A DNA stretch of 63,151 nucleotides, filler included, from Collodictyon triciliatum (taxonomy: Eukaryota): NCBI GenBank assembly GCA_043381765.1. It is 7 parts of 7 records of this genome, joined end to end, with 100 filler letters (N's around TTAATTAATTAA, not from the genome) between each part and the next. Parts side by side here need not be neighbours in the genome. Positions count along the whole stretch, not along the records: positions 43,624 to 54,413 come from JBHJMP010002561.1; 6 more parts are not named here. The stretch is one strand, 5' to 3'. Made by a program: the position numbers and the translations under genes. Every line of letters begins with the position of its first letter. Within the stretch, counting starts at the first letter, position 1. Positions 44,381 through 54,413 of the stretch are shown here, piece after piece. Under the pieces are notes generated by a model. That model was not told the DNA's origin. It searched no databases and was given only the letters and a program-made list of their open reading frames with translations.

Positions 44381-47300
44381 ATGAACGTTGAGATTCTAAA
44401 GATTGCAATCAGTGTTGATGAGGTAGACACCTGGCGTAAAGAAATTTTTTTTATTTCTTTTTCATAAATTATAGAAGAATTCTCATTTAATAATTATTTA
44501 GGTCTCTTCTAGCTGGACCTCCCATCAAGCGAACCACCCAACAGCTGGAAAAAAAACCGTCACGAATGAAGTCGGTGATGCAACTGATTTCGTCAGGCTG
44601 ATTAAACAGCTCTTCGATGCTTGTTCTGGTGCTTACAATCCACCCAGGTCTTCAGTTTTTTCTTTTCTTTTTTCTTTCTTTCAAATTCATGTGGTTATTT
44701 TATTATCATTACTGTCATTCTATAAATAATCGCATGAATGAAATAGCCCTAACCTTCTGGGCGTTGTCTGCGAAGGACCGCACAAGGCGAAGATTCGAGA
44801 AGAAATTCAAAGCGGGCTCATGATAGAGTCTAGAAATCTATGTAAATCTTAATTCATTACTAATTTGGTATTCACATCAACTGTTCTAATGAACACCAAA
44901 TATAAGCCAGTGTCATAATTTAATGAAAAATGTTTCGATGATAGACGAGTATGAAAGAAGCGGTCAAACTGCGATGAAGTCATCGCCACCAGATTACCTT
45001 GGAAGGGGATTGTGCTCTGAGCTCGTTATTCCTCCAAACATCGACCCGAACATTCTGAATGATGAAAATTGCTTCAACGAATCTGTCAGTCATTCATTTC
45101 GCAGTGATGGGATTTATGAGTTGGGTCCCAATATCAGAGGAGGAGGAAATGCTTCTTCACGAATGGCCCGCTCCAATGCAAGCACCCCATCGCAAACACC
45201 CGGCGCCCCATCGCGAACACCCGGCGCCCAATCTGATTCATCAGTCGACGTTCTCGAAATTCTGTCCAAACTCAACGAGGCTTATCAGTCGACTTCAGCC
45301 AACTCAACACCTGGTGAGTTACCAAACATATCCATACAACTGACTCAGGTGCTGGCGTCTCAGTTATTAATGAGCCCTACCAAGGAAGAGGATATTAAAA
45401 TCGTTGAACGCCTTGTTGCGCTTCATATTTCTTTGGTTGAGAGGCAAGCTGCCATTCAGAGTCAGAGCCAACGAGAACAAGTTGAAATTGCTGAGAAACA
45501 AGTCCAAATTGCCGAGAAACAAGCAGCCATCCACATTCAGAGCCAACGCGAGCAAGCTGACGTTTCTGAGAAGCAAAATGAATCAAAGCAAAGACTGATT
45601 CAGGGCCTTATCGACCAGCTCTCACGACTGCCAGCATCTCAGCAAACTCCGCAAGTGATTGATTCATTGGTGCGCGTTATTTTGCCACAAGTAGCACCAT
45701 CAAGCTCTGGCCAAACAAATGCAGGCATGTTCTCACCCATGTCGCAATCTCATGGTAATCTTATCACCAATACAAATCAACAATCCGGCGTTAACATTAC
45801 TCCCACTATTCAATCGATTCCAACAAATCTTGTTGCAGTTCAACCAAAACCTCATAATGTTTCGCAAATCCCACCTCAACAAGGAGCAACACCGACAACA
45901 CTGGCATCAAATCAATCTGGAGCAAATAAACCCACACCACAACATGCTAGCAGTGCAACATATTCTACACAAAGTACTGGTAACACAAATCCTCAGGCAA
46001 ACGCAGTACCAAGTGAGTCAAAAAATCACCCGGGAGACAGTTATGCGAATGCCTCCGAGCTTTCAAAATCCATATCCGAACAACGAGACCAACAGTCTGA
46101 TAAATATAGCTTTGAAAAGATAAGAGCTCTTCGCATAATCAAGCTATTCATGAAGGAACAAACCGCTGATGACGAGAGCTTGGAAGAAATTACTGCACTG
46201 GCCCCAGCAGGAGACAAACTCATTTCGGAGAAGCTGATAACTGCTATTGGCACGATGATGGATAAAAAAATGGAGAAGCTGGACCGCCTGCTAAACGCCT
46301 TGAATATCGTTGTGGGGAATACACTGAAGGAGGATTTCGACCACACGTTGCTAGCTCAAGTCCTAGATATTCTGATAGACCGTGTCGGAACTCTCTTTTC
46401 TTCGGACGAGGCTTTATGTCAAAGGATATTGGACAGTCTGATTTCCATCTTGAATTCGCTGTGTATTTCTGGAGCATCAGGAATTCCTGAAGAAAAATAC
46501 AAATCATACAAGGAAACATTTGGACAGAGCTGGATTGAGAAGAAAATTGAGACTCGTGGGGAAGAAATCGAGAATAAGATGAAAATTCAATATGTTCAGG
46601 CCAAGAAATCTTTGTTCTGTGAGCTCCTGAAGCATATTGGCGATGGCCAGAGTCCAGTCGTGAAGAATCTGAAAATCGCTGGCAGAGTTGGACTTGGTTT
46701 GTTTAACGCTGCATCTGCTGCTTTCTCTTTCGATATCAGCGGCACTCTGGCATCATTGCAGGAGGTTGCGACCGCTGTTGGAGAAATCGATATCAAAAAG
46801 GATTGGTTTACATTCTATCAAAAATTTCGCGTCGGTTTATTTGTCAGTGCCGATGAGGCGAAAAAAGCGTGGGATTCTCAATTTTCAGGCAAGAAGGGCA
46901 AAGTTGGAGAAACCCTGGCATTCCTAATTATTGATACAATTTATGAATGCTATCTCCACAAACACAATAGCTCTGAGGGACAAAAAGTTCTCGAATTGAT
47001 GGAGCATATCACACGTCATGAAAAATGGCTGAAAAGTGAGGTTATACACCAATTTGTGGAATCAAAAAAGCAAGAAATGACATCATATAAGCCAAATGAG
47101 TCAAAATTACCTACTGCACTTTTTGAAAAGGCTGGTAAAGACGAAAGAACTATTCAAGACATCATCGAGAATATCAAGGAAGAAACCGTTCGAAATGAAG
47201 ATTTCAAAATTCGTTTTAATACATACATCTCTGGCCAAGCCGAAAGAATTGTTGAGAAAGGAAAGGTGTTTGATGCCCAAGAATACATCCTGAATTTCTC

Positions 47301-53300: not shown

Positions 53301-54413
53301 TTTCATGGCAGCTACCACCCTGCCGTATATACTGAAGGAAAGGGATGAGTCAAAATCGAAAGAGAATTTTAATGCAAAAATATTGAGGACGGACTTTCTG
53401 GACAAGTTTTCAAAGAGGTGGTTCGAACGCGAAAGAGAGAAGCTTGAAAATAATTTATCTTTGAAGAAAATAATGCCTGAGGATTTACCGATGTTGCTTT
53501 GGAATAAGTGCAAAGATATTGCAAAAGTCATGTTCCATAAAGGCCGCCCTGCTTTGGAGTACGAAAAAATTGAAGGCAAGGTAAAGAAGCACGAATATGA
53601 CGAGTTTTTCCATCCCAATCCAGACCATATGATTGATGGTGAGCTTACTTACTCATTTTTTGTACTGCGATGCGCCCCCATTAAGAAATCTAGCGCCAAA
53701 ACATACGAGTTCTTTCACAAATCGCTGTACGAATTCTTTGTTGCTGAATACAGTAGAGACGAAATCAATGGTTCCGATGCAGAAAATCAGGATTCTATCA
53801 TATCGCATGTTAAAGTTCAGTACGTTACGAGCTCATCTGAACCTGCGAATTCTATGCCTGAAAAATCTGATGCGAAATCTCCAATTTTCAAGCTGTCTGA
53901 TGTTGTTAATTCTGTGACGAAGTCAAAAGTGAAGACAAATATTCTTGATAAAAAGCTTGAGCCTGCTATTCTGCTCAATATGAGTGAAAAAGTGAACAAC
54001 GACAAAGCCTACAAAGACAACCTGTTTTTGATAATAGAGAAATCCAAGACAGATGCAAGCAAAGCGCAAGCTGCATCTAACGCCATCACAATTCTGAACT
54101 ATGCTGATGTTTCGTTCAGTGGCATGGATTTCAGAGGGATTCAGATTCCAAATGCTGATATGTCACAGTCTGTTGCTGATGGTACTGACTTCACTGGTGC
54201 CAACTTGAAAGGTGTTTTTTTCTATAATGCATTCATTTCAAACTGTATTTTTGATAAGACTAACATGAAATACGTCAATTTTGGTCGCTTACCTTTGTTT
54301 TTGGGACATTCAAGCTCTGTCAACTGTGTTTGCAGTATTCAAGGACCGAATGGTGAAATATGGATGGCATCTGGAAGCGATGATGAAACAATACGTATTT
54401 GGGATGTAGCCAC
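44381..54413 (+). CDS. Giant NLR-like STAND protein: helical - NACHT-like NTPase - pentapeptide - 13 WD40 - Sel1-like, then a second helical - NACHT - pentapeptide - WD40 module; 3' truncated
   Basis: Uninterrupted ~9.5-kb exon from ~44945; Walker A GDSGSGKS twice, Walker B FLDGYDE / FLDSYDE, YEFFHKSLYEFF twice, AASNAITILN plus pentapeptides twice. Three small 5' exons from ATG 44381 splice in frame. Confidence 0.9.
48919..50727 (+). repeat. Coding tandem array of 13 WD40 units, mostly 135 nt (45 aa)
   Basis: Consensus TLEGHxxxVxxVCSIQGPNGExWLASGSxDxTIRIWDVATGNQIK; unit 7 carries a ~21-aa insertion; units 11 and 12 are nearly identical. Confidence 0.95.

Follow-up and report, generated by a model that had tools for sequence, protein, structure and literature searches.

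The window analysed here, a stretch of 63151 bases from the genome assembly GCA_043381765.1 of Collodictyon triciliatum, carries on its plus strand an open reading frame (ORF; 44923–54413) for an NLR-like protein that is doubled head to tail. Residues 376–1369 and 2169–3163 (nt 46048–49029 and 51427–54411), which belong to unit 1 and unit 2, respectively, are 79.6% identical over 1000 columns (BLASTP, E 0.0), and one frame runs through both without a stop until it leaves the contig. Probably, this is a nuclear gene of a Diphylleia-like eukaryote (Diphyllatea, CRuMs), in which a unit made of an ARM-like helical domain, a NACHT module, pentapeptide repeats and WD40 repeats was tandemly duplicated into a single frame that extends over 3163 codons or more, with constraint on both copies. 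Much is known about the NLR-like receptors of animals, plants, some fungi and, by now, bacteria, but hardly anything about those of deep-branching protists. An earlier reading of the same DNA without database searches (the sequence-only reading) had described a stop-free, in-frame repeat between ~46070–49030 and ~51430–54413, a linkage of the two parts by Sel1-like repeats, and an NLR-like NACHT protein doubled in one open frame. These three claims are borne out here, the last one by two Pfam matches to NACHT and a match to the NLR fold.

The duplicated units and their reading frame

From the ATG at 44923 to 54413, the last base before a run of N's, the coding frame has 0 stops over 3163 codons; each of the five others has 110–260. 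The ORF of 9.5 kb has no introns. The sequence-only reading had let the gene begin at 44381; this start is unsupported. Immediately ahead of 44893, the frame contains a stop, and no credible Pfam match was obtained for the small upstream ORFs. At the other end, the stop reported by the ORF caller at 54465 is located inside an artificial linker, so that the real 3′ end of the gene must lie beyond the contig. The 222 codons that link the two units are also free of stops in the coding frame, with 13 and 24 stops in the other frames of this linker.

At the DNA level, the units are 84% identical, that is, 16% of the bases differ, and a DNA repeat search returned pairs of 82–88% identity at a spacing of 5376–5394. 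A comparison of the two modules, one of the checks proposed by the sequence-only reading, gave a synonymous divergence (dS) of 0.50 and a nonsynonymous divergence (dN) of 0.11 over 989 codons, a dN/dS ratio of 0.22, and the ratio stays at 0.10–0.40 in 100-codon windows along the unit. Given this divergence and the low ratio, the two copies are not collapsed, a possibility raised by the sequence-only reading, and purifying selection has maintained the coding capacity of each. The same reading had also suggested a sensor/helper-like pair. This suggestion is not supported, as neither unit looks like a degenerate partner: Walker A and Walker B motifs are intact in both, the domain content is the same, and dN/dS is low throughout.

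The order of domains is the same in the two units as far as they can be followed. Unit 1 is complete, with its helical domain, NACHT, pentapeptide repeats and 13 WD40 blades, followed by a conserved tail and Sel1 repeats. In unit 2, the WD40 part amounts to 37 residues (one blade) before the contig ends. Therefore, of the two NACHT-pentapeptide-WD40 modules claimed by the sequence-only reading, the first stands as described, while the WD40 array of the second was an extrapolation from these 37 residues. The final 118 nt of the contig (54296–54413, plus strand), corresponding to the first blade of unit 2, do not differ at a single base from 48914–49031, the first blade of unit 1, whereas elsewhere the units have no exact run in common that exceeds 47 nt. 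Possibly, gene conversion homogenised this blade, or the assembler halted on re-entering sequence that it had already used. With an exact repeat at the end of the contig, a second WD40 array can only be presumed, and the number of units could exceed two.

Domains of the two units

The N-terminal 375 residues (44923–46047, plus strand, as are all features of the gene) are rich in Ser, Gln and Pro and of low complexity. They match no Pfam family and have no relative among the 181 sequences of the profile set introduced below, and in neither N-terminal piece does Pfam report a HET domain, even with E values allowed up to 1. Unit 1 then opens with a helical domain of 395 residues (residues 376–770; 46048–47232), whose structure prediction had been proposed as a check by the sequence-only reading. 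The AlphaFold2 model (predicted local distance difference test, pLDDT, 75.1) is all-helical and resembles an ARM/HEAT-like alpha-solenoid, though the matches are weak: armadillo repeats are the best match in Foldseek at E 8e-3, importin beta is the best match by VIA with Z 10.3, which is under the noise level stated by the tool for helical repeats, and Protein Atlas gave no usable match for this domain. The counterpart in unit 2 (residues 2169–2562; 51427–52608), delimited by alignment with unit 1, matches Pfam ARM_5 (PF23948) at 18.5 bits (E 9.6e-4), below the cut-off of 27, while unit 1 has no such match; PF23948 is present in the precomputed domain lists of at least 8 of 27 relatives. Our own profile of the helical domain matches 75 of the 181 sequences, and the fold is that of a generic alpha-solenoid. 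A pore-forming or HeLo-like domain, considered on account of a Gly/Ala-rich stretch of low pLDDT (model residues 212–250), was rejected, as fold matches were found only to ARM/HEAT solenoids.

The NACHT module with its helical and winged-helix parts covers residues 771–1230 (47233–48612) in unit 1 and 52609–53994 in unit 2. Pfam NACHT scores 34.5 and 34.1 bits, respectively, above the gathering cut-off of 26.7. The Walker A motif (GxxxxGK[ST]) reads GDSGSGKS in both units (47335–47358 and 52723–52746), and of 187 NACHT modules in the alignment, at least 183 retain its G, G, K and S/T residues. The Walker B motif is FLDGYDE in unit 1 (47575–47595) and FLDSYDE in unit 2 (52963–52983), precisely the DGYDE to DSYDE difference noticed in the sequence-only reading. 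Among the 187 modules, the small-residue position of Walker B is G in 166, A in 11 and S in 4, so unit 2 carries the rare S. Both forms satisfy D[GAS]hDE, the NACHT signature given in the accessible text of Kibby et al. (preprint 10.1101/2022.07.19.500537). An AlphaFold2 model was made for the nucleotide-binding oligomerization domain (NOD) module of unit 1 (pLDDT 77.8), and it matched NLRP2, NLRP3, NOD2 and NLRC4 at E 7e-11 to 1e-9 over ~400 columns; the alignments with the NACHT modules of NLRP3, NOD2 and NLRC4 extend over 376–445 columns, from the nucleotide-binding domain into the helical and winged-helix subdomains that follow it. The protein is thus an NLR-like member of the NACHT clade of STAND nucleoside triphosphatases (NTPases).

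Profile annotation with hidden Markov models, also among the proposed checks, found pentapeptide repeats beside NACHT in both units and Sel1 in the linker. The pentapeptide repeats of unit 1 span ~80 residues (1256–1334; 48688–48924), score 35.8 bits with PF00805 and match pentapeptide proteins in PDB at E 1.6e-5; those of unit 2 (3050–3128; 54070–54306) were recognised by Pfam and by our own profile. They are followed in unit 1 by thirteen WD40 blades (48916–50739) of 45 residues each, a period of 135 nt, with a mean pairwise identity of 66% at the protein level and 78% at the DNA level. The blades vary mainly at columns 5, 6, 7, 9 and 10, which follow GH, and at the x's of SGSxDxT (columns 28 and 30). 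The dN/dS ratio is 1.91 for these seven columns and 0.33 for the remaining ones, dS being similar; the contrast is inflated because the columns were picked after their variability had been seen. According to the available portion of a study on HET-E, blade codons 7/9 and 25/27 of this fungal protein flank conserved residues, lie on the top face of the propeller and are subject to positive selection and concerted evolution (PMC1805685). As a separate feature, blade 7 of the thirteen contains a Lys/Glu-rich insert of 21 residues (49774–49836), near the presumed meeting point of two propellers.

Downstream of the WD40 array, a conserved tail domain of ~110 residues (1956–2065; 50788–51117) is located, which stands at or near the C-terminus in Diphylleia relatives. 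The Sel1-repeat segment (51118–51426) connects the tail to unit 2 without a stop or a change of frame. Its Pfam Sel1 match at 51238–51327 reaches 37.3 bits (cut-off 30.7) when the linker is scanned alone and 30.4 bits in a longer piece. After WD40, the tail domain is found in 9 of the 181 sequences and Sel1 repeats in 5 of them.

Relatives, independent sequence data and competing explanations

An exhaustive HMMER search of 1.84 billion representative proteins returned 6244 matches at E up to 1e-3 and 496 at E up to 1e-30. The profile set of 181 sequences was composed of the gene's protein, the 150 best HMMER matches, the matches of a further search, and cluster mates. The top matches are transcripts of Diphylleia rotans, two of which, P0003 (38% identity) and P0004 (35%), have the whole layout. 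Kinship with the family known from Mortierellaceae and an endosymbiotic bacterium, along the lines of the sequence-only reading, is confirmed by matches to P0009 of Modicella (E 3.8e-70), P0010 of Linnemannia (E 4.6e-70) and P0086 of Mycoavidus (E 3.6e-50). Three other Diphylleia proteins, P0002, P0005 and P0018, have only the pentapeptide, WD40 and tail parts in common with the gene and contain no P-loop motif or detectable NACHT; apparently, different N-terminal regions have been attached to the same sensor cassette.

The phylogeny of NACHT modules that the sequence-only reading had asked for was computed from 187 modules and 349 of 921 alignment columns (FastTree, LG model, midpoint root). 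The modules of unit 1 and unit 2 are sisters (0.992) within the Diphylleia clade: they are joined by P0004/P0153 (0.912), then by P0003 (0.985), and then by Hexamita and P0174 (0.827). The order of relatedness is Diphylleia, Hexamita inflata, further records, Mortierellaceae and Mycoavidus cysteinexigens. Because the modules are sisters inside the Diphylleia clade, the gene would have arisen through a local duplication, in a family that was resident and had diversified before, and the evidence points to such a lineage-specific tandem duplication and not to a recent transfer. The lateral acquisition put forward in the sequence-only reading is therefore retained only in a general form: the patchy spread of the family over Diphylleia, Hexamita, Mortierellaceae and Mycoavidus fits a transfer at some time, while a recent one is unsupported. 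Most of the 181 sequences carry no taxon label, so no donor can be named.

The boundaries of the units suggest how the duplication took place. Single-unit Diphylleia relatives start ~25–37 residues before the helical domain and end ~10 residues past the tail or after the Sel1 repeats. For example, the helical domain of P0004 begins at residue 36 and its C-terminal end follows Sel1 repeats, while P0002 and P0018 end ~10 residues beyond the tail, with a Sel1-like motif. By this agreement of starts and ends, unit 1 (residue 376 to ~2160) would correspond to a whole ancestral single-unit protein. Since unit 2 begins where a single-unit protein begins, the simplest history is a tandem gene duplication of which the stop codon and the spacer are now gone.

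Furthermore, two NACHT modules were found by our own profile scan in 16 of the 181 sequences, the gene's protein included. An identical two-unit layout is present in two relatives, P0009 (Modicella) and P0104 (Entomortierella). The former runs through helical domain, NACHT, pentapeptide repeats, WD40, helical domain and NACHT, and is cut by a contig end as well. P0086 of Mycoavidus has two NOD modules in a single bacterial ORF. The fungal two-NACHT proteins are gene models, known here without their underlying DNA. Among 14 proteins with both modules in the tree, only the Collodictyon pair are supported sisters, at a distance of 0.30 against 0.68–5.58 for the others. Module doubling thus appears to recur in the ARM-NACHT-pentapeptide-WD40 family, and the Collodictyon case appears to be the youngest among those seen. 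A literature search on doubled or tandem NACHT returned no description of doubled NACHT modules, none of the papers listed by another, on Hexamita inflata with NACHT, pentapeptide, NLR and WD40, names this species, and the listed titles and abstract openings of the literature on Diphylleia rotans genome assembly include none on NLRs.

Six sequencing runs, none of them recorded as RNA, matched the gene, and four were compared at 90% likeness: 286 matching records were found in X1 (58 of them at 99% or more), 232 in X2 (48), 71 in X3 (14) and 6 in X5 (3). Two lake-metagenome contigs of X5 are exact over 51380–51530 and 51509–51659, and the first bridges the boundary between linker and unit 2 at 51426/51427. 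A contig of X3 matches 51538–51737 with one difference. In X1 and X2, there are many relatives of 90–99% identity, unit-1-like as well as unit-2-like. None of the records listed from the four runs spans unit 1 to unit 2, and no site was reported in X1–X3 and X5 at which many molecules begin or end. A protein scan of metagenome contigs gave 18 pattern matches, none of which was confirmed, and an exact 39-mer over the unit boundary had 0 matches there. X1 and X2 may be RNA data. In X1, a loose end before 50803 resembles what we take to be the template-switching oligo of a cDNA protocol; no conclusion on expression is drawn from it.

Several points weigh against a duplicated single-frame gene as set out above. 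The two-unit arrangement rests on a single contig, with no read or transcript seen to span unit 1, its WD40 array and unit 2, and this contig terminates within the exact 118-nt copy of blade 1, so that a repeat problem, of the assembler or of the genome, exists exactly there. A 1454-nt contig of X2 joins 46046–46098 directly to 51490–52640 (95% identity; 56 differences, 4 gaps), and N-terminus-like sequence precedes the join (matched region 45397–46098); this contig would represent either a single-unit relative with the same N-terminus in a related organism or a chimera. No close relative was found in the library of 1.84 billion proteins or in three word-index protein searches, the best match with the full architecture being 38% identical. 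No PADLOC family (2023 library, prokaryotic systems) matched unit 1 or unit 2 with an E value of 1e-3 or lower, and we know of no member of this receptor family whose function has been assayed. Of the word-index searches, those depending also on length bands found nothing for unit 1 (lengths 546–1740) or for the junction of tail, Sel1 and helical domain (lengths 338–1078). A search of genome contigs with the Mycoavidus protein, meant as a check on the bacterial ORF, was uninformative, with only three weak Crocosphaera loci at 22–25% identity.

Some of these observations can be explained otherwise. The locus may be real and yet yield two proteins, like an adjacent pair of NLR genes, if an internal promoter or start, polyadenylation or splicing separates unit 1 from unit 2. 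The close agreement between the start of unit 2 and that of single-unit relatives, such as P0004, would be expected in such a case, a Met at residue ~2151 stands 18 residues ahead of unit 2, and the X2 contig of 1454 nt presents a single-unit form. However, a linker of 222 codons that is open in the coding frame alone, and that encodes a Sel1 repeat above the Pfam cut-off, is nothing like an intergenic spacer, and two NACHT modules do occur in a single ORF in the bacterial P0086; we consider separate products unlikely. An assembly chimera seems slightly less likely again. Here, two paralogous loci that are not neighbours would have been joined via WD40 or Sel1 repeats, or the end over-extended through a shared repeat. 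The exact self-repeat of 118 nt at the contig end is what such a process could leave, X1 and X2 contigs of other family members cover the WD40 and Sel1 parts 100–500 times against 1–12 times on unit-specific parts, and X2 has two more contigs that pass from unit-2 sequence to the homologous position of unit 1 (53487 to 48112; 53654 to 48286). On the other hand, differences at 16% of the bases and a longest exact run of 47 nt away from the contig end show that the units are not collapsed, and even a join within the WD40 array would leave WD40, tail, Sel1 and unit 2 in a single frame. The exact X5 contigs across 51380–51659 and the clean frame and unit boundaries also speak for continuity.

Or the contig may be bacterial, from a symbiont, a prey organism or a contaminant, since long intron-free NACHT-pentapeptide-WD40 genes are common in bacteria; the 9.5-kb ORF is of this kind, and the family is present in Mycoavidus and in metagenome records. 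This origin is highly improbable. The NACHT modules nest within Diphylleia transcripts and beside Hexamita proteins, the GC content of the contig (0.396) is in line with that of the neighbouring contigs (0.37–0.43), and PADLOC gave no match. The 1.3 kb upstream of the gene contain microsatellites and A-runs, and no ORF beyond the small ones mentioned above. A eukaryotic origin is concluded from this AT-rich upstream DNA, the low-complexity, S/Q/P-rich N-terminus and the fact that the nearest relatives are assembled transcripts. The reading that we prefer is thus the young tandem duplication in a Diphylleia-like eukaryote, read as one frame.

Contig layout, significance and known systems

The window is a chain of contigs of ~10.8 kb and not a single molecule. 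Six identical artificial spacers, each consisting of 44 N, TTAATTAATTAA and 44 N, are located at 10803–10902, 21733–21832, 32631–32730, 43524–43623, 54414–54513 and 61051–61150; this type of spacer contains stops in all frames and is used for chaining contigs. Features on either side of a spacer are therefore without physical linkage. An extra gap of 7 N is present at 22561–22567. The contig with the gene (43624–54413; JBHJMP010002561.1) is 10790 nt long with artificial linkers on both sides, and all 12 rows of a tblastn search with the gene's protein against the whole window fall inside 43624–54414, none on the other contigs. Its AT-rich upstream region (43624–44922, plus strand), in which no family match was found, opens at the contig edge in a (GAAAA)n microsatellite (43624–43720), and the preceding contig closes in (TAA)n (43500–43523). 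Contig breaks in this stretch coincide with simple or exact repeats.

The other contigs yielded observations of their own. The first one (1–10802) differs in composition, with a GC content of 0.50 overall and 0.68 at 4–6 kb, and may be a GC-rich region or the DNA of a different organism. An ORF on it (1339–2964, plus strand) encodes PUA_2 and the first 131 of the 212 positions of ATP-sulfurylase, so this gene is interrupted. On the minus strand, adjacent ORFs at 14748–15617 and 15849–16670 encode near-complete protein kinase domains (E 2.4e-48 and 2.1e-22) and would be either tandem kinase genes or one two-kinase gene. The contig with these kinases also carries a retroelement, an ORF at 18673–19635 on the minus strand with a reverse transcriptase domain (RVT_1, E 3.1e-26). 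Rfam gave 0 matches across the window.

By analogy with STAND/NLR proteins, the WD40 propellers would bind a ligand through the variable residues of their top surface, ligand binding would free the NACHT NTPase for nucleotide binding and oligomerisation, and the clustered ARM-like N-terminal scaffold would recruit a downstream partner. A single transcript and a single polypeptide are presupposed here, and a role in immunity or non-self recognition may be supposed on the same grounds. If the gene is indeed expressed as a single protein, it provides a natural test of two complete NLR units working in one chain. More speculatively, head-to-tail fusion of NLR units could be a recurrent, selected solution in this family, as seen here, in Modicella and in Entomortierella, with a doubled NOD in Mycoavidus. 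The product would then be a single-chain NLR pair or a longer array, in which the sensor of unit 1 gates the ARM-NACHT part of unit 2. Such gating would give two recognition specificities or a built-in two-step threshold, and the protein would be the first receptor of this kind in CRuMs, a deep eukaryotic branch without described immune receptors. We regard this extended proposal as doubtful.

The family is a known and catalogued one, and what appears to be new is a young fusion of whole units in a CRuMs-like protist. The gene adds a Diphylleia-like protist to the range of the NACHT-pentapeptide-WD40 family and, judging from the proteins placed next to it in the tree, Hexamita as well, while the available text of the report on this family discusses it only for Mortierellomycota and their endosymbiont (PMC11291939). 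Its patchy spread bears on how frequently NLR genes have moved between bacteria and eukaryotes, and the young two-unit fusion suggests that paired or multi-unit receptors can arise through simple tandem duplication and the loss of a stop codon. A repeat truncates the gene at the contig end, so that the figures of 3163 codons and two units are minimum values.

The closest known system is the group of NACHT-pentapeptide repeat (PPR)-WD40 receptors of Mortierellomycota, which, according to the part of that report at hand, are common to these fungi and Mycoavidus or were acquired from the latter (PMC11291939). The Collodictyon protein has the same domain order, complete in unit 1 and followed in unit 2 as far as the first WD40 blade, with a pentapeptide spacer and a putative ARM-like N-terminal domain, matches at E 1e-50 to 1e-70, and two-NACHT members are found in that family too. 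However, identity is only 27–36%, and the Collodictyon protein falls in a separate clade with Diphylleia and Hexamita, adds a tail and Sel1 repeats after WD40, and has modules that form a young sister pair. As far as the accessible sections of PMC1805685 go, the allorecognition NLRs HET-E and HET-D and other NWD proteins of Podospora anserina likewise combine NACHT with highly similar WD40 blades, and their variable positions (7/9 and 25/27 in HET-E) resemble those found here, while the Collodictyon protein lacks a HET domain and has a pentapeptide spacer and blades of 45 residues.

Animal NLRP3, NLRP2, NOD2 and NLRC4 share, in the predicted model, the NOD fold over ~400 columns (template modelling score 0.45–0.49 on the query), whereas sequence identity is 14–18%, the sensor is WD40 instead of leucine-rich repeats (LRR), and there is no PYD or CARD. 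Bacterial bNACHT anti-phage proteins, as presented in the available text of the preprint (10.1101/2022.07.19.500537), share the D[GAS]hDE motif and have repeat sensors that include beta-propellers and pentapeptide repeats; in contrast, the Collodictyon protein belongs to a eukaryotic host, has an N-terminal domain that would be a scaffold and not an enzyme, and gives no match in the PADLOC library of 2023. The nearest parallel for two modules in one gene product is provided by plant NLRs with two nucleotide-binding (NB) parts: in the accessible portions of the sources, RPP2A is TIR-NB-TIR-NB-LRR, of a family evolving by tandem duplication, and only its effector-NB part is doubled (10.1101/2023.04.25.538220; PMC7747988). 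Unlike RPP2A, which is built on NB-ARC and LRR, the Collodictyon protein uses NACHT and WD40, and it is the whole unit, including the sensor, that is repeated.

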